Source: an uncultured Gammaproteobacteria bacterium (GTDB lineage Bacteria; Patescibacteriota; Patescibacteriia; 2-12-FULL-60-25). Taken from it: DNA of 64,000 nt. Shown in pieces: positions 9,702-58,310 of the stretch. Position numbers and translations under genes: made by a program. How positions within the stretch are numbered: position 1 is the stretch's first letter; every line of letters begins with the position of its first letter. The notes beneath the pieces were generated by a model. The model did no database searches. It saw only the letters and a program-made list of their open reading frames with translations, and was not told where the DNA came from. Location: positions 14,298-78,297 of the forward strand of contig CAYWEE010000001.1 of the NCBI GenBank assembly GCA_964457295.1. The letters run 5' to 3'.

Positions 9702-9710
9702 AAGGCGAAC

Positions 9711-9823
9711 GCTCTGATTTGGCGAGCTTCGGGCGCTTCGCCTGGAAATATCCTCAACGTACGTCATAGTACGTCTCCGGTATTTCCGTGCTCCAGCATC
9801 CCGAATCTCATCCAAATCAGAGC
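9711..9823. repeat. ~113-bp imperfect palindrome, ERIC-like element, copy A (candidate structured RNA)
   Basis: Outer stem GCTCTGATTTGG/CCAAATCAGAGC, inner GGAAATA/TATTTCC, apical ACGTAC/GTACGT. Homologous copy at 47176-47297. Confidence 0.8.
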
Positions 9824-9852
9824 CTTCGAGATACCGTATAAGCGGGATTAGT

Positions 9853-11102: not shown

Positions 11103-11411
11103 CTATTTTTTGATCCGATACAACGCGGCGTACGTTACCCCGCCGGCTCCATGCGTGGCTTCGGCGTCACGAAAATAGGGGACGAGGGCAGTTTGTTTTT
11201 GAAGCCAGGCATGAATGGCTTTGCGAAGCGTACCTGTGCCTCGACCGTGAATGATTTTTATCACTTCGGTGCCACGCATCATTTCGCGGTGCAGGAAGGT
11301 TTCTAAACGATCTAGCGCAAGATTCACGTTTTCTTCATGCAGATCTATCGATGGCGCTTCACCAATTTCGGCCGCGAAAATTGCGGCTTCGTATGGGGAT
11401 GTTGTTTTCAT
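11103..11411 (-). CDS. Smr-domain protein
   Basis: IDLHEENVNLALDRLETFL...IKIIHGRGTGTLRKAIHAWL is the Smr/MutS2 C-terminal domain. ATG at 11411 lies 2 nt after the upstream stop (alternative GTG at 11426). Confidence 0.8.
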   Translation of the reverse strand: MKTTSPYEAAIFAAEIGEAPSIDLHEENVNLALDRLETFLHREMMRGTEVIKIIHGRGTGTLRKAIHAWLQKQTALVPYFRDAEATHGAGGVTYAALYRIKK

Positions 11412-17131: not shown

Positions 17132-17209
17132 CGGAATCCTTCGACTCCGCTGCTGCTCCGCTCAGGAAAGAATAAAGGAAATTCGTCCCTGAGCTTGTCG
17201 AAGGGCTAC
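17132..17209. repeat. Composite palindromic intergenic repeat (CCTGAGCTTGTCGAAGG family), copy R1
   Basis: CCTTCGA...CTCAGG...CCTGAG...TCGAAGG. The reverse complement matches blocks of 22093-22195. Confidence 0.75.
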
Positions 17210-17212
17210 AAT

Positions 17213-17243
17213 AAAAAAAACGACCCCACAGGGCCGTTTTTTT
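17213..17243. terminator. Bidirectional intrinsic terminator between convergent grx and prx
   Basis: A8-CGACCCC-ACA-GGGCCG-T7. Confidence 0.6.
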
Positions 17244-27505: not shown

Positions 27506-27558
27506 GGGGAGGGCGAATTGCCAATCTGGCTTTTTTCGGGCAGACTGGGCGAACACAG

Positions 27559-27585
27559 AGGGCGGACACATCGGTCCGCCCCTAC
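27559..27585. repeat. GC hairpin repeat AGGGCGGACRCATCGGTCCGCCCCTAC (copy 2)
   Basis: 26 of 27 nt identical to 2404-2430. Ends 4 nt before the lepA ATG. Confidence 0.6.
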
Positions 27586-29407: not shown

Positions 29408-29427
29408 TACAGTGAGCTTGTCGAACT

Positions 29428-29529
29428 ATGAAAAAACAAACCAAGCAAATTTTGTGGAAGATCCTCTTGAGTTTTGTTGCCTTCTCCACGATCTTCTTTT
29501 TGCTCGCGCCACTCGCGACGATGTTTTAA
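29428..29529 (+). CDS. Possible 33-aa membrane peptide
   Basis: Not in the ORF track. MKKQTKQILWKILLSFVAFSTIFFLLAPLATMF fills the lepA-recJ gap; its stop lies 3 nt before the recJ ATG. Confidence 0.3.
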   Translation: MKKQTKQILWKILLSFVAFSTIFFLLAPLATMF

Positions 29530-34076: not shown

Positions 34077-36221
34077 ATGGAGGCTAAGCGTCGCGCGGTT
34101 CGGCGTAGGGTCTCTCGTGTAGAGCGAGGGTCGTTGTTTTGGCGTACGCATCACTTGTTAGCTGCGTTTTTGTTGTGCGTCAGTGTTGGGATGTTACTGG
34201 CTTCGTTGACCGTTTCGGTGACGCCTCGGGGTGCTCGTGCGTCATCGGCCGAGAATGTTATGGGATGGATTTGGTCTGATGCGGTGGGGTGGATATCCAT
34301 GAATGATCAAAATGTGGGTGCGTGTGGTGCTGGAGGGTGTGGTGTGTATGGAGTGAATGTTGACCCCGCCTCTCGCGAATTGACGGGTTTTGCTTGGTCG
34401 GATGGGGCGGGGTGGATTTGTGTTGGTACGACATGCAGCACCGATCCGTCGTGTGATGGCGTGCCTCCGGATGGGGCCTTGAAGGCGTATTTGGATCAGG
34501 GGATAGGGACGGTAGAGGCGCATGGGTGGGCTAAGGCGTGTAATTTGGGTGACGATGGTTGGATCTCGCTCAATTGCGCAGAAGTTGGAGCCTGCGCGTC
34601 GCTGAATCCGTATTATAAAGTTGTTTTCAATCCGGCGACCGGATATTTCAATGACGTTTCTGTTCCCGGATCCTCATTTGCGTGGAACGGCACAGTGGGT
34701 GGTGTGGGGTATGGCTACATGGATTTTTCTAATGTATTCATCGCTCCGGAGGGAACGGCGACATCTACGCCTGGACAGCCTCAGCCACAATGTCAGGATG
34801 GGGTTGATAATGATTTAAATGGTGTTGATGATTGCTCGGATCCGGCTTGTAGCGCTGATCCGGCGTGCGGAGAGGATCCGAATAATGGAAGCTGTGTTGA
34901 CGGGGTGGATAACAATAATAATGGTGTCATCGATTGCAATGAAGTGAGCTGTTCTGCGGCGGCGAACTGTCAAGAAAATCCAAATAATGGATCGTCGTGC
35001 CAAGATGGCGTAGATAATAATTTGAATGGAACGCAAGATTGTCAGGAGGTGGCTTGCCAGCCGACGCCCGTGTGCGCAGAGACGCCGGTGAATGGATCGT
35101 CGTGCCAAGACGGTATGGATAATAACGGCAATGGTCTCCAGGATTGTCAGGAGGTAGCTTGTCAGGCCTCACCGGTGTGTGTCGAGACGCCTCAAAATGG
35201 TGCCGCGTGTCAGGATGGTATTGATAATGATGGCAATGGTTTTGTCGATTGTCTCGACGCGCTATGTAGCGCTTCTCCGGTATGTGTGTTGGCCGGAGAG
35301 GCGACAGCTGTTGATCCGGTGACGGGGCTTCCGGTCGGTCAGGATGCGGCTTGTTCTGATGGGACTGATAATGATGGGAATGGTTTGGCAGATTGTGCGG
35401 ATCAAAACTGTTTGAATGCACCGATTTGTACACCTGCTTGGTTACAGGCTAAGTTTGGCAACGTGTATGCTCAAGCTGGGATTAGCGGCGTGGCCAAGTC
35501 GCACGCTACGTATTGTTTAACTTCCGATGGAGATATTACCGGCTTTACGAGTAGCAGCACGTGTATTGAGGCGCAGTCAGGTCAAGATATTCACCTGCCA
35601 AATGAAACGACGGGATACCAGGGGAGTTTGGGGCGCATCGATATCGCCGGTATCTTGAGCGGTCGATATGGAGCGGTGGTATCAAATCCTGTTTCTGTTC
35701 CTCCATCACTTGATGGAAAGGTGTATGTCGTTAACGGAGATTATACCCTTGGTGCTACGACCTTTTTGAATCAATCCGGACCTACGGCTCGAGGCAATGG
35801 TCTTTTGGTGGTGCAGGGTAATCTTACCATCGGAGGAAACCTGTCTTACCCATCTAATGTACTGACGCAGTATGTGCGTAACTTGGCATCATTTGGGGTG
35901 ATCGTGATGCGGGATCCACAAACGGGACAAGGGGGGGGTATCTACATCGCTCCTGGGGTGACGCACATTGTTGGGGCATACTTTGCCGAGGATACTCTGC
36001 ATACGGGAACGCTCTGTCCAAGCTCCATGAGCTGCGCGCTTGATCAGCCGTTGACGATTATGGGGTTAGCGGCGGCCCGTCGCTTCTCGTTTGAGCGTGG
36101 GTATCACAATGCCTCGATGGCGGCCGAGACGATCATTAACGATAGTCGCGCGGTCGCGAACCCCCCACCGGGCATGCAAGAAGTTTCACAATCGTTACCT
36201 CGTTCTAAAGACGCATTTTAG
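34077..36221 (+). CDS. Large secreted or membrane-anchored Cys-rich repeat protein (putative pilus-associated adhesin)
   Basis: N-terminal TM, GWIWSDAVGWISMN / GFAWSDGAGWI motifs, six CxDGxDNDxNGxxDC modules, and a C-terminal ~260-aa domain. Confidence 0.8.
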   Translation: MEAKRRAVRRRVSRVERGSLFWRTHHLLAAFLLCVSVGMLLASLTVSVTPRGARASSAENVMGWIWSDAVGWISMNDQNVGACGAGGCGVYGVNVDPASRELTGFAWSDGAGWICVGTTCSTDPSCDGVPPDGALKAYLDQGIGTVEAHGWAKACNLGDDGWISLNCAEVGACASLNPYYKVVFNPATGYFNDVSVPGSSFAWNGTVGGVGYGYMDFSNVFIAPEGTATSTPGQPQPQCQDGVDNDLNGVDDCSDPACSADPACGEDPNNGSCVDGVDNNNNGVIDCNEVSCSAAANCQENPNNGSSCQDGVDNNLNGTQDCQEVACQPTPVCAETPVNGSSCQDGMDNNGNGLQDCQEVACQASPVCVETPQNGAACQDGIDNDGNGFVDCLDALCSASPVCVLAGEATAVDPVTGLPVGQDAACSDGTDNDGNGLADCADQNCLNAPICTPAWLQAKFGNVYAQAGISGVAKSHATYCLTSDGDITGFTSSSTCIEAQSGQDIHLPNETTGYQGSLGRIDIAGILSGRYGAVVSNPVSVPPSLDGKVYVVNGDYTLGATTFLNQSGPTARGNGLLVVQGNLTIGGNLSYPSNVLTQYVRNLASFGVIVMRDPQTGQGGGIYIAPGVTHIVGAYFAEDTLHTGTLCPSSMSCALDQPLTIMGLAAARRFSFERGYHNASMAAETIINDSRAVANPPPGMQEVSQSLPRSKDAF
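34791..35429 (+). repeat. Six tandem ~105-bp coding repeats (Cys-rich, Asp/Asn-rich modules)
   Basis: For example TCGTCGTGCCAAGATGGCGTAGATAATAA at ~34993 recurs at ~35098. Protein modules: CQDGVDNDLNGVDDCSDPAC..., CQDGVDNNLNGTQDCQEVAC..., and so on. Confidence 0.85.
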
Positions 36222-41571: not shown

Positions 41572-41955
41572 ATGTCCAAGCTTCGTATTTTATTGGTTGA
41601 GGATGACGGGTTTTTGGCCAGCATTTACGCTCAAAAATTGGAGATTGAGGGATTTGAGGTGGCTTTTGCGACAAATGGTGAGGATGGGTTGCGGTTAGCG
41701 CATAAGGATCCGGCGCCGGATTTGATTTTGCTAGATCTCTTAATGCCCAAGATGGATGGGTTTGAGCTTTTAGAAAAATTAAAAGGGGATGAAAAAACCA
41801 AAGCAGTGCCTGTCTTGATCCTGACTAATCTTGGACAAAAAGAAGATGTGGATCGCTGTATGAAGTTGGGAGCGGTGGGATATATTATCAAGGCGCATGC
41901 GTTGCCACAGGAGACGGTAAAGCGCATCAAAGAAATATTGCATGTCGGCGTTTAA
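41572..41955 (+). CDS. Stand-alone CheY-like response-regulator receiver
   Basis: ILLVEDDGF...PDLILLDLLMPKMDGFELL...LTNLGQ...K. No output domain. Confidence 0.85.
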   Translation: MSKLRILLVEDDGFLASIYAQKLEIEGFEVAFATNGEDGLRLAHKDPAPDLILLDLLMPKMDGFELLEKLKGDEKTKAVPVLILTNLGQKEDVDRCMKLGAVGYIIKAHALPQETVKRIKEILHVGV

Positions 41956-43150
41956 ATATCGCGTTCGCACGGCGAGCGGTGAAGTGCAGGCTGGGGTGAT
42001 TCAGGCTGAGAGTATGGAGTTGGCCGAAGAGGCCCTACGTGAACGCGGCATGACGCCGATGTTGCTTGAGCCGTATCGGGGAATCGCCTCGGGTGGTGGT
42101 TCGTTTACCATTTTGCATCGCATCAGCTCTAAAGAGGTCGTGGGTATTTCTCGCGCCTTGTCGGTGATGGTTTCGGCCTCGGTGCCGATTACGGAAGCGC
42201 TGCACAATATGGCGCGACAGGCCGATAATCCGCGTTTGCGTTTTATTTTGTTGGATATCGCCTCTGAGGTTGAGGGTGGCGGACGCTTGTCGGATGCGAT
42301 TGAGCGGCATGTACAGGTTTTTGGTGCGTTTTTCGTGAACATGATTCGATCCGGCGAAACCTCGGGTCAGCTTTCCGAGGTTTTGGAATATCTCGCTGAT
42401 CAGCAAGAGAAGGATTACGATCTCAAATCAAAAATTCGCGGCGCCATGATCTATCCCGCTTTTATTATGGGATCTATGGTGATCGTGGGGTTTGTCATGA
42501 TGGCGTTTGTCGTGCCCAAGCTGTTATCTGTTTTACGCGAGGCGAATGTAGCGCTGCCTCTGCCGACACGAATGTTGATTGCGGTTTCGGGTTTCTTTGC
42601 CAATTTTTGGTGGTTGATTCTTATCTTGGTTGCGATTTTTGCGATCGCCTTTCGCGTATTCATGACTACGCCGTTGGGTAAATACGTGATCGATCTTGTC
42701 TTGCTTCGTTTGCCGATTTTTGGGCGGTTGTTTCAAGGGATGTACGTCGTGCGCTTTACCCGTTCGCTTTCAACGCTTGTCAAAGGTGGGGTGGACACGG
42801 TAGGGGCTTTGACGATTGTGGCCGAAGTGGTGGGAAATGAGGTTTGGAAGCGCATGATTCAAGAAACGATCCGCGAGGTTAATGATGGGAACTCGTTGAC
42901 CACGGTGTTTGAGCGTTCGCCGTTTGTGCCCTCGATGATGAATCAGATGCTGGCAGTGGGGGAGCATACTGGACGAACGCAGGAGATTTTGCAGCGTGTG
43001 AGCGCGTTTTATAGTCGCGAGATTGACAATGTGGTGGCTAATTTGGTGGCTTTGATTGAGCCGATTGTGTTGCTTTTGTTAGGTGCAGGTGTGGGGATTT
43101 TGGTTTCGGCGATTTTATTGCCATTGTATTCACTGTCTACTGGGGTTTAG
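41942..43150 (+). CDS. pilC: Type IV pilus platform protein PilC (GspF family)
   Basis: Two GspF repeats. 402 aa, 3 TM. Confidence 0.9.
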   Translation: MSAFKYRVRTASGEVQAGVIQAESMELAEEALRERGMTPMLLEPYRGIASGGGSFTILHRISSKEVVGISRALSVMVSASVPITEALHNMARQADNPRLRFILLDIASEVEGGGRLSDAIERHVQVFGAFFVNMIRSGETSGQLSEVLEYLADQQEKDYDLKSKIRGAMIYPAFIMGSMVIVGFVMMAFVVPKLLSVLREANVALPLPTRMLIAVSGFFANFWWLILILVAIFAIAFRVFMTTPLGKYVIDLVLLRLPIFGRLFQGMYVVRFTRSLSTLVKGGVDTVGALTIVAEVVGNEVWKRMIQETIREVNDGNSLTTVFERSPFVPSMMNQMLAVGEHTGRTQEILQRVSAFYSREIDNVVANLVALIEPIVLLLLGAGVGILVSAILLPLYSLSTGV

Positions 43151-43173
43151 AGCAGGGGATAAATTCCTTGTGG

Positions 43174-43282
43174 ATATGTCTCCCGCCAGGGCACATGTCC
43201 CTTCCCGGTCTGCGGATTCCCTTTAGGTGGATGGTCAGCGTCCTATCCCGTCCAGAGACATGTGCCCTGGCGGGAGACATAT
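43174..43282. repeat. Hairpin element with a conserved 56-nt core, copy 1 (candidate structured RNA or terminator-attenuator)
   Basis: Perfect 26-bp inverted repeat 43174-43199 / 43257-43282. The block 43201-43265 is identical to 58226-58290. Confidence 0.85.
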
Positions 43283-43320
43283 CTTTTTTTATGTTTAAAA
43301 GTGCGAAGTACCTTTCATCG

Positions 43321-43329
43321 TGCTATACT
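43321..43329 (+). promoter_or_regulatory. Candidate extended -10 promoter TGCTATACT for the major pilin gene
   Basis: TGnTATACT lies 36 nt upstream of the ATG at 43365. Confidence 0.4.
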
Positions 43330-43364: not shown

Positions 43365-43862
43365 ATGCAGAAAACTAAAGGGTTTACCCTTATCGAACTA
43401 TTGGTTGTGGTCGGGATTATTGGTCTGTTGGCGACACTTGCTGTGGTGGCGTTTGGAAGTGCTCGAGTGAAGGCGCGGGATGCCAAGCGTGTGGCTGATG
43501 TTCGTTCGGTGGTTTCTGGTCTTGCCGGAGCCGCACAGGATAGTTTGTATCTTTGTCAAAAGGGATGTGGTGCGCCACTTGCGGCAGGGGATTTGGTGAG
43601 CGCTTCGGATATTTGTAACGTGAATTGTAATGGTTCTAGTGCTAATTCTGTGTCTATTAACTATATCAATTTAGGTATTGTGCAGGATGCGGATCAGGCC
43701 AATTGGAGCACAGCATGTGATGGGTCTAACACCAAGTGTAATTATGCCTACGGTGCCGGCTCCACGATTGAGAGTTTTACGATTAACTTCTTTACCGAGC
43801 AGGCTGTACAGGGTATCGCAGCTGGGGCGCATACGGCGGCTCAAACAGGTATCGTTAAATAA
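43365..43862 (+). CDS. Type IV pilin (probable major pilin)
   Basis: Prepilin leader MQKTKG|FTLIELLVVVGIIGLLA, with a Cys-containing C-terminal domain. Confidence 0.9.
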   Translation: MQKTKGFTLIELLVVVGIIGLLATLAVVAFGSARVKARDAKRVADVRSVVSGLAGAAQDSLYLCQKGCGAPLAAGDLVSASDICNVNCNGSSANSVSINYINLGIVQDADQANWSTACDGSNTKCNYAYGAGSTIESFTINFFTEQAVQGIAAGAHTAAQTGIVK

Positions 43863-43871
43863 GAGAAAATA

Positions 43872-43947
43872 GTTCCTGAGCTTGTCGAAGGATGACCAAA
43901 ATCAAAGTATTGCGGCCCTTCGATTCCGCTCCGCTGCACTCAGGGAC
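43872..43947. repeat. Composite palindromic intergenic repeat, copy R4
   Basis: TTCCTGAGCTTGTCGAAGGA...GCCCTTCGATTCCGCTCCGCTGCACTCAGGGAC. Confidence 0.75.
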
Positions 43948-46601: not shown

Positions 46602-47177
46602 ATGCATTCCGGTTTTTCTCTTCTTGAGATGTTGATTGTGATTGCGTTATTTTCGACGCTAACGGTGATTGTCTCGCAAACGTTTATTTCTTTTTCTACG
46701 CTTCATCGTCGTACGGCGAATGCAGCTGTGGTGGGCGCGGAGATGCGTTTTGTTATGGAGTATATCGTTCGAGCTGCCCGGAATCGGGAGTTGAATTATG
46801 TGCTGGCTCCCTTAGATCCGCAGGATACGGTTTTGCATTTGCGTGATTCCACCGGTGCGACGCTGGATGTTGGCTTGCGTCCGGGTGGAACGGGCGGAGA
46901 TTGTGCAGATGCCACCGTGACTCAGTGCTTAGCGGTTTCGATTGACGGTGGAACGACGTGGCAGCCGCTTACGGGTAAGCGGGTTGAGGTAACGAGTTTT
47001 CGTGTGTATCCACGTCCGGCAGATTCGCCGTTCGCTTCGGTGAATGGAGTATACGCATCCAATGTTCAACCGTTTGTGACAGTGACGGTTGGGCTGCGCT
47101 ACATGAGCGAACGGGTAAAAGAGCAGGCAAGTTTGGAGGCGCAGACGACCGTAAGCTCCCGTATCTATGTCCGGTAA
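46602..47177 (+). CDS. Minor pilin / pseudopilin
   Basis: MHSG|FSLLEMLIVIALFSTL. SD AAGAGG precedes the ATG at 46602. Confidence 0.75.
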   Translation: MHSGFSLLEMLIVIALFSTLTVIVSQTFISFSTLHRRTANAAVVGAEMRFVMEYIVRAARNRELNYVLAPLDPQDTVLHLRDSTGATLDVGLRPGGTGGDCADATVTQCLAVSIDGGTTWQPLTGKRVEVTSFRVYPRPADSPFASVNGVYASNVQPFVTVTVGLRYMSERVKEQASLEAQTTVSSRIYVR

Positions 47178-47297
47178 CATTGTTTTATTTGGCGAGCTTC
47201 GGGCGCTTCGGTCAAAAATATCCTCAGCGTACTTACGGTACGCTTCCAGTATTTTTGCCCTCCAGCATCCCAAATCTCATCCAAATAAAACAATGTT
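47176..47297. repeat. ~122-bp imperfect palindrome, ERIC-like element, copy B
   Basis: Outer 17-bp stem AACATTGTTTTATTTGG / CCAAATAAAACAATGTT. Homologous to 9711-9823. Spans exactly from the upstream TAA to the downstream ATG. Confidence 0.85.
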
Positions 47298-57321: not shown

Positions 57322-58134
57322 ATGTCTGAACAGCCTCATATGCACGAGCATCCTCATCCACACATGGACCCATCTTCTGTAGGTCCATTTAGCGGATCTC
57401 CTCGAACCATGTTTTATCTGGGTTTGTTTGTAGGGATCGCGGCGTATACGACGTTGTCGTTACTGTTGTTGCTTTCGTTTATTGTTTCTGGCAAGTCTGT
57501 TCCTGGTTTGGGTGGTTCTGGTACGGATTCAGTGGCTGTAGCTCCGACGCCGAGCGCCGCCCAGCCTTCCGCGCAAGCTCCTTCGGCTGCGGCTCCCGTG
57601 AAGCCTGTGGATGAAAAAGCTGATCATATTCTTGGTGCCAAGAACGCCAAAGTAACATTGATTGAATATTCAGACTTCGAATGTCCGTTCTGCAAGCGCC
57701 ACTTTGATACGATGAATCAAGTGATGAAGAAGTATCCAAATGATGTGCGTTTGGTCTTCCGTCATTTTCCTCTCTCGTTTCATCAGAACGCCCAAAAGGA
57801 GGCCGAAGCTTCAGAATGTGCGGCCGAGTTGGGTGGAAACGACGCGTTTTGGAAGTTCCACGACAAGATTTTTACCGAAACAACATCAAATGGCACGGGT
57901 ATCGCGTTGACGCGTCTCGCTCCGATGGCCAAAGAACTTGGCTTGGACGAAAAGAAATTTCAGACCTGTCTTGATTCTGGAAAGTACGCCGCCAAGGTTG
58001 CTCAGCAGATGCAAGAAGGTTCTGATGCCGGTGTGCAGGGTACGCCTGGCACGTTCGTGAACGGTCAATTGGTCGAAGGAGCTGTTCCTCTCGCTCAATT
58101 CACGACCATGATTGATGGGATGTTGAAGAAGTAA
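57322..58134 (+). CDS. DsbA-family thiol:disulfide oxidoreductase with a His-rich N-terminus
   Basis: MSEQPHMHEHPHPHMD, a TM anchor and YSDFECPFCKRHF. Confidence 0.8.
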   Translation: MSEQPHMHEHPHPHMDPSSVGPFSGSPRTMFYLGLFVGIAAYTTLSLLLLLSFIVSGKSVPGLGGSGTDSVAVAPTPSAAQPSAQAPSAAAPVKPVDEKADHILGAKNAKVTLIEYSDFECPFCKRHFDTMNQVMKKYPNDVRLVFRHFPLSFHQNAQKEAEASECAAELGGNDAFWKFHDKIFTETTSNGTGIALTRLAPMAKELGLDEKKFQTCLDSGKYAAKVAQQMQEGSDAGVQGTPGTFVNGQLVEGAVPLAQFTTMIDGMLKK

Positions 58135-58164: not shown

Positions 58165-58195
58165 AATCCCCTCTAAAACAGAGGGGATTTTGTTA
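58165..58195 (+). terminator. Intrinsic terminator after the second dsbA-like gene
   Basis: AATCCCCTC-TAAAACA-GAGGGGATT followed by TTGTTATT. Confidence 0.75.
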
Positions 58196-58200
58196 TTGAG

Positions 58201-58305
58201 ATTTCTCCCGCTCCAGCACATGCCTCTTCCCGGTCTGCGGATTCCCTTTAGGTGGATGGTCAGCGTCCTATCCCGTCCAGAGACATGTGCTGGAGCGGGA
58301 CAAAT
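58201..58305. repeat. Hairpin element with a conserved 56-nt core, copy 2
   Basis: 24-bp stem 58201-58224 / 58282-58305 with 2 mismatches. Its core is identical to copy 1. Confidence 0.85.
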
Positions 58306-58310
58306 ATTCT

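Follow-up and report, generated by a model that had tools for sequence, protein, structure and literature searches.

A type IV pilus cluster lies within the window analyzed here, which is the whole stretch of 64,000 nucleotides. In this cluster, pilC and a type IV pilin gene follow one another on the plus strand, with the genes for PilB, a second pilin, and the prepilin peptidase nearby, and those PilC homologues that bear a name belong either to the Patescibacteria group or to Candidatus Uhrbacteria. The pilC-pilin spacer is 214 nt long and contains a hairpin element of approximately 111 nt (copy 1, whole extent 43173-43283), which is placed 23 nt past the pilC stop codon and 82 nt ahead of the pilin ATG. 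A second copy of the element is present 15 kb away at an unrelated intergenic site, between two convergent genes, a DsbA-like gene (57322-58134, plus strand) and a gene for a rhodanese-domain protein. There, copy 2 sits between the rhodanese stop codon, which is 2 to 5 nt away, and a canonical bidirectional terminator hairpin (58165-58189), which is also the DsbA-like gene's own terminator. A position directly after a stop codon is shared by both sites. Since copy 2 lies in the 3' UTR of the minus-strand rhodanese gene, its direction of transcription would be opposite to that of copy 1. The features of the two sites are as follows.

41942-43150, plus strand: pilC (T2SSF family), upstream neighbor of copy 1
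43173-43202, plus strand: left arm of copy 1, 30 nt, with 43174-43199 pairing perfectly; variable block CAGG at 43187-43190
43203-43253, plus strand: loop core of copy 1, 51 nt, unpaired and the same in copy 2; its own fold is not above chance
43254-43283, plus strand: right arm of copy 1; complementary block CCTG at 43266-43269
43284-43290, plus strand: run of seven T (T7) directly after the stem, terminator-like; not common to copy 2 and absent in relatives
43320-43329, plus strand: GTGCTATACT, extended -10 box of the pilin gene; kept in relatives, within approximately 13 nt of the pilC stop codon
43365-43862, plus strand: type IV pilin gene (N_methyl motif), downstream neighbor of copy 1
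58165-58189, no strand assigned: canonical bidirectional terminator hairpin, preexisting, between the DsbA-like and rhodanese genes
58198-58227, plus strand: left arm of copy 2; variable block TCCA at 58212-58215
58228-58278, plus strand: loop core of copy 2, identical to the loop of copy 1
58279-58308, plus strand: right arm of copy 2; block TGGA at 58291-58294; ends 2 to 5 nt from the minus-strand rhodanese stop codon
58311-59510, minus strand: rhodanese-domain gene, with copy 2 in its 3' UTR

Structure of the hairpin and divergence of its two copies

A sequence-only reading of this DNA had described the arms of copy 1 at 43174-43199 and 43257-43282 as perfect reverse complements. This was confirmed, and the inverted repeat was found to reach even further, to 30 nt on each side (43173-43202 and 43254-43283, 97% complementary), so that the unpaired core between the arms measures 51 nt and not the 56 nt originally proposed. 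The 26-bp stem of copy 1 is formed by Watson-Crick pairs only, with no G:U pairs, which, judged from the pairing pattern, leans towards a DNA palindrome over an RNA stem. The equivalent arms of copy 2 (58201-58227 and 58279-58305) are 27 nt long and 93% complementary. The reported identity of the 65-nt block at 43201-43265 with that at 58226-58290 was also correct (100%), and no match was obtained in 100 shuffles of the window. The element is shorter than 200 bp and noncoding, the open reading frames across it being only mechanical, and its G+C content is 56 to 59%, compared to 50% for the window.

The replacement of four consecutive stem pairs on both arms between the copies (CAGG/CCTG to TCCA/TGGA, with positions 43187-43190 paired to 43266-43269), likewise claimed from the sequence alone, was borne out by a pair-by-pair table, in which a fifth pair, 43178/43278, was also found to be compensated, from G:C to T:A on both arms. 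When all 30 stem pairs were tallied, 5 were compensated and 20 were invariant, and 5 positions were altered on one arm only. The compensated pairing collapsed in all slid-register controls; in a shuffle control, which is weak because only two sequences enter it, 12 of 500 shuffles reached the observed value. Overall, the changes between the two copies fell on 15 of the 60 arm positions and on 0 of the 51 loop positions (Fisher's exact test, p = 4e-5 by position and p ~0.004 to 0.013 when 7 to 9 mutational events are counted). An invariant loop with varying arms is the opposite of what is seen in REPINs and most MITEs, whose ends are conserved. With n = 2 copies, either the loop may carry a sequence that is recognized, or the palindromic arms may mutate faster.

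Folded as a whole, the element was far better than its shuffles on both strands (z = -10.7 and -10.4 as RNA and z = -11.3 as DNA), and the stability of the hairpin was -70 kcal/mol. Folded alone, the 57-nt core was worse than most shuffles (z = +1.06 for the plus strand and z = +1.03 for the minus strand); the sub-hairpin that had been drawn within the core is not better than chance. At gathering thresholds, Rfam 15 yielded no match to the element, its sole hit being a tRNA elsewhere, and permissive E-value scans of both copies returned only generic miRNA-precursor hairpins, with at most 28 bits versus cutoffs of 93 to 96 bits. The sequence-only reading had likewise been unable to assign the core to a riboswitch or ribozyme consensus.

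The sequences that follow copy 1 are as had been claimed, namely, C plus T7 at 43283-43290, an extended -10 sequence at 43321-43329 (TGCTATACT, within the pilin extended -10 region), and the pilin ATG at 43365. A promoter scan found no promoter-like site or boxes inside the element or in its arms, and a terminator scanner made no call at copy 1, with its 51-nt loop. At the ends of the element, copy 1 has the dinucleotide TA on both sides (43175-43176 and 43280-43281), and copy 2 has GA on its left side and TA on its right. Homology between the copies runs 2 to 3 nt past these dinucleotides, and no clean target-site duplication was found.

Filled sites, empty sites, and searches for further copies

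The pilC-pilin junction of relatives was compared with that of the window. In two sites of sister lineages, the spacer measures 54 nt (Logan contigs L007 and L008; PilC, 94% identical; samples of this 94% lineage, SRR31802043 and SRR31802046) and 56 nt (a JGI contig; PilC, 93% identical), and in a more distant relative, it measures 52 nt (L009 to L012; PilC, 69% identical); there is no trace of the element in any of these spacers. Relative to them, approximately 156 nt of extra DNA is present here upstream of GTGCTATACT, which is itself retained; as this exceeds the 111 nt of the element, the comparison of filled and empty sites is not a clean one. Because the element is missing from the spacers of the relatives, where GTGCTATACT comes directly after pilC, the element represents an insertion of approximately 156 nt; by the same token, the pilin promoter is the ancestral feature, and the hairpin arrived later, between this promoter and pilC. 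The right-hand 37 nt of the extra DNA, T7 included, is not common to copy 2, and the T7 run would accordingly be assigned, by alignment, to the locus-specific part of the insertion. At the site of copy 2, an 82% identical relative has the same stop codon followed by unrelated sequence over the 22 nt available, a comparison that is suggestive of an empty site and not conclusive. The lack of the insertion in close relatives, together with the 65-nt block that is identical between the copies, indicates that the duplication was recent. As far as these comparisons of homologous loci go, the element at the pilC-pilin junction appears to be a recent, lineage-specific insertion and not a conserved riboswitch-like regulator.

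The JGI 3300045353, JGI 3300045354, and Logan SRR23702505 assemblies also contain this sequence, and since they are independent, the element is not an assembly artifact. The genome is carried by Logan sample SRR12487045 as well. Logan contig L006 stops at window-equivalent position 43230. The last 31-mer with the copy-specific base 43200 ends there, and we infer that an assembly graph (k = 31 is assumed) would branch at this point if a repeat starts at 43201, which would independently support repetition of the shared block in that sample.

Two copies are known, both within approximately 74 kb of this genome. A covariance model run over 197 kb (approximately 74 kb of this genome and approximately 110 kb of relatives) recovered the known copies only, and single arms of the element do not occur elsewhere in the window or in the loci compared. 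Extension of the genome to the right of the window (approximately 10 kb) revealed no copy, and extension to the left gave nothing new. Among 185,579 species genomes, an 18-mer from the core had three random hits, and no hit was obtained with a 20-mer from the core in a collection of JGI metagenome contigs, which evidently does not hold the JGI samples carrying the element. A search with the stem pattern in which the 4-nt block was left free gave one hit, a lone arm with no partner arm. Two viral scans produced random matches only, blastn against plasmids and phages detected no copy, and a protein-level search among 5.8 billion proteins had no match to any of the element's three open frames. 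Among the 30 window ORFs scanned, there was no transposase, integrase, reverse transcriptase domain, or RAYT-like gene. A TnpB/omega-RNA end beside copy 2, which the size (399 aa) and position of the adjacent ORF had brought to mind, was dismissed when that ORF proved to be the rhodanese protein. A DNA-uptake sequence was rejected, as the arms were found to occur in these two elements only, and a restriction-site cause of the 4-nt block (CCWGG versus CTGGAG) was set aside, as neither site is depleted in the window. A literature search returned no description of small hairpin repeats in Patescibacteria.

Other repeats were observed in the window. A second hairpin family is present at 9706-9828 and 47176-47297, where both copies form whole-length rods that bulge at corresponding places (z = -7.2 and -9.0) and have no Rfam match. 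Identity between the interiors is 82%, and several pairs in them are compensated. The outermost 11 nt of one copy bear no relation to those of the other and yet are self-complementary within each (10/11 and 11/11). The copy at 47176-47297 separates two genes of the pilus operon for which the gap in relative L009 is 4 nt, and its arms extend into the stop codon of the upstream gene and the start codon of the downstream gene. From its sequence context, this second family likewise looks like an insertion. For its outer arms, insertion into preexisting dyad-symmetric targets is one explanation, which would parallel what is known for YPAL (PMC2229807). In addition, a short G+C-rich hairpin, GGGCGGAC...GTCCGCCC, occurs with shared flanks at two gene ends (2399-2430 and 27554-27585; 91% identical) and may represent either a third small hairpin repeat or a terminator common to both; Logan contig L029 begins near the first of these copies. 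The motif (CC)TGAGCTTGTCGAA(GG) is found three times, at 17171-17219, 29413-29436, and 43858-43906, one of them in the 29-nt gap between two pilin genes, and may be a putative shared leader or binding site. A 714-aa ORF of the pilus cluster, for which there is no Pfam match, contains five diverged tandem repeats of approximately 105 nt at 34791-35424 (TGYCARGATGG...GATAATRAT...AATGG...GATTG), and its repeats look like those of a cysteine-rich repeat protein. Finally, a long imperfect inverted repeat lies at 11151-11279, with 26-nt arms that are 73% complementary and 77 nt between them.

Host function versus mobile DNA

Given the position of copy 1 between pilC and the pilin gene, we considered the possibility that the element is maintained for its effect on host transcripts. 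One such proposal is that of a host-selected terminator or mRNA-stabilizing cassette, which would end transcripts and protect their 3' ends and would have been duplicated by recombination with no dedicated transposition. The placement of both copies just after stop codons (23 nt for pilC and 2 to 5 nt for the rhodanese gene), the T7 run after copy 1, and the extreme stability of the hairpin (-70 kcal/mol) all speak for this proposal. We nonetheless judge it unlikely. On the minus strand, from which copy 2 is transcribed, no T/U-run follows the stem, and a canonical bidirectional terminator already exists downstream of this copy; intrinsic terminators do not typically have a loop of 51 nt or a stem of 30 bp; the identity of the 51-nt loop is left unexplained; and relatives do without the element. 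The duplex of 26 to 30 perfect base pairs that would form once either copy is transcribed, both being in probably transcribed positions, might also serve as a small RNA precursor or as a double-stranded substrate cut by RNase III, by analogy with Correia elements, which are bound and cleaved by this enzyme (PMC2649163). Control of the stability of neighboring mRNAs in this way is very unlikely to be the primary function, since such cleavage is compatible with a mobile-element origin and would be an added effect rather than a rival origin, and since the opposite orientations of the copies mean that the loop sequence cannot be a functional part of an RNA at both sites.

The sequence-only reading had gone further and proposed that the element could gate read-through from pilC into the pilin genes, as a riboswitch, attenuator, thermosensor, or other cis-regulatory structured RNA would. 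A core conserved in sequence, a closing stem with five compensated pairs, and the terminator-like T7 after the stem on the plus strand are what could be expected of such an RNA. However, the junction has no element in the 93 to 94% and 69% PilC lineages, where pilC is immediately followed by the promoter box of the pilin gene; copy 2 has no connection with pili and has the opposite transcriptional sense; the core folds no better than shuffles; no Rfam family matches; and a perfect 26-bp stem leaves no room for an alternative antiterminator conformation. We therefore regard cis regulation as highly improbable. What survives of the gating proposal is a plausible terminator-like effect on pilC read-through, and what does not is its conserved part in the junction, which is empty in those relatives; a regulatory reading that covers both copies is not supported, as they face opposite ways relative to host transcription. 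Similarly, where that reading had offered either a functional structured RNA or a hairpin-recognized DNA site, the DNA site is plausible, and the RNA is disfavored by the Rfam noise and the absence of a core fold. A dyad-symmetric site in double-stranded DNA that is not itself mobile (a cruciform or recombination site) and to which a recombinase or some other dimeric protein binds would account for arms that are strictly Watson-Crick palindromic, with the invariant loop as a possible binding site. This we consider the least probable of the readings, since a fixed binding site should keep the sequence of its arms and yet these vary, no recombinase gene is nearby, and the sites are empty in relatives. 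Nor does direct reading reveal attC-type end motifs; the ends of both copies read GATATGTC... and ...GACATATC, in which the R'' (RYYYAAC) and R' (GTTRRRY) motifs are absent, and an integron attC site was rejected.

Taken together, these results lead us to the view that the element probably belongs to a small and hitherto undescribed family of nonautonomous hairpin repeats in a Patescibacteria (CPR) genome, of the bacterial MITE/REPIN kind. Bacterial MITEs have been defined as noncoding elements of less than 200 bp that carry terminal inverted repeats with TA at their ends, produce target duplications, and yield long stem-loop transcripts (PMC2229807). In its sequence, the element appears to conform largely to this description, being noncoding, under 200 bp, and bounded by terminal inverted repeats, with filled versus empty sites, the decisive comparison, distinguished for copy 1; it is not A+T-rich and in this is unlike classical MITEs. 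With REPINs it shares inverted ends that form a hairpin around a spacer, with compensatory changes, and its ends are not more conserved than its spacer. The sequence-only reading had held, on account of the compensated stem, that the element does not fit a MITE. That argument does not stand, because compensated stems are already documented for mobile DNA: compensatory changes are common across the hairpin of REPINs, fitting selection on a folded single strand (PMC3116915), and base-pair compensatory changes maintain the structure of bcr1 repeats (PMC3184786).

If the element is such a repeat, it would spread, or be kept intact, as a folded single strand, with single-stranded DNA likelier than RNA, as has been proposed for REPINs and for IS200/IS605-type elements. 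The arms would need only to pair, and the loop would carry whatever sequence is recognized. A folded single strand is favored because classical recognition of terminal inverted repeats in double-stranded DNA predicts conserved arms and not mirrored arm changes. A change in one arm could be mirrored in the other either through arm-to-arm templated repair within the palindrome or through selection for hairpin competence, and such mirroring would yield both the 4-nt block that is complementary between the arms and the fifth pair. Effects on the host would then be side effects. At copy 1, a very stable hairpin followed by T7 would end or stabilize the pilC transcripts and separate them from the pilin gene, which retains its own conserved extended -10 promoter; on the modeled hairpin, we think that copy 1 probably does terminate or stabilize these transcripts. 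At copy 2, the side effect would be an added 3'-UTR hairpin upstream of the existing terminator.

A further suggestion, to which we give a rather slim chance, is that hairpin repeats here may be propagated by way of a single-stranded intermediate that folds back, so that one arm is resynthesized from the other. Daughter copies would then show any change in the template arm on both arms, and recognition would fall to the 51-nt loop, which is unstructured and invariant. Fold-back regeneration would jointly explain the perfect pairing over 26 bp, the mirrored block of 4 nt, and the fifth compensated pair. For the second hairpin family, it is the more novel explanation and would also cover the outer 11-nt arms, which are unrelated between copies and yet self-complementary. 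If true, it would constitute a mobility mechanism distinct from classical transposition, in which terminal inverted repeats are recognized.

Patescibacteria are generally regarded as having small, streamlined genomes. The recent arrival of a hairpin repeat in a type IV pilus operon would imply that such elements are active in this group and can rewire operon boundaries, here by placing a terminator of pilC relative to the pilin promoter. Such elements can also be mistaken for regulatory RNAs, and they probably break short-read assemblies, as illustrated by Logan contig L006, which ends inside the element. The combination of an invariant loop with compensated arms is unusual for the class; if this pattern holds over many copies, it would provide a clean natural test of selection as folded single strands.

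Comparison with known systems

Copy 1 resembles Rho-independent terminators in having a G+C-rich hairpin followed by seven T right after a stop codon. It differs from them in its 30-bp stem and 51-nt loop, in the lack of a T-run on the transcribed strand at copy 2, and in that the element is repeated and is an insertion. Like the ERIC/IRU repeats of enterobacteria and the bcr1 repeats of the Bacillus cereus group, the element is a small imperfect palindrome, these families measuring 100 to 160 bp, being cotranscribed with their neighbors, and differing in presence among related strains (PMC3184786, PMC2229807). Unlike the element, of which two copies were found and which has no sequence similarity to either family, they comprise tens to hundreds of copies and have defined direct end repeats.

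REPINs, which are REP doublets mobilized by RAYT transposases, are also nonautonomous and extragenic, form a hairpin of approximately 100 nt from two inverted ends and a spacer, and show compensatory changes on both sides of the hairpin (PMC3116915). In REPINs, the 16-mer ends are invariant and the spacer is less conserved, whereas in the present element it is the arms that vary, around an invariant spacer; moreover, there is no RAYT gene in the window, and the arms are without the conserved REP-like intra-arm hairpins.

By analogy, the closest counterpart in size and build would be the Correia elements of Neisseria (CREE/NEMIS), which consist of an inverted repeat around a conserved core, bind RNase III, and can alter the expression of neighboring genes (PMC2649163). 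The element described here has no sequence similarity to them, is G+C-rich with no promoter-like boxes in its arms, is represented by two copies so far, has an unclean TA duplication at copy 2, and varies more in its arms than in its core. The similarities are nonetheless extensive. The short form of the Correia elements is approximately 105 to 107 bp long, compared to approximately 110 nt here, and in both cases terminal inverted repeats of approximately 24 to 26 bp surround a conserved core, with TA at or near the termini. Both are intergenic and lie beside genes that include pilus genes (PMC2649163, PMC2229807), and, if the likeness extends to function, both would be transcribed into a long duplex that RNase III can cut and could thereby change the expression of their neighbors (PMC2649163, PMC2229807).
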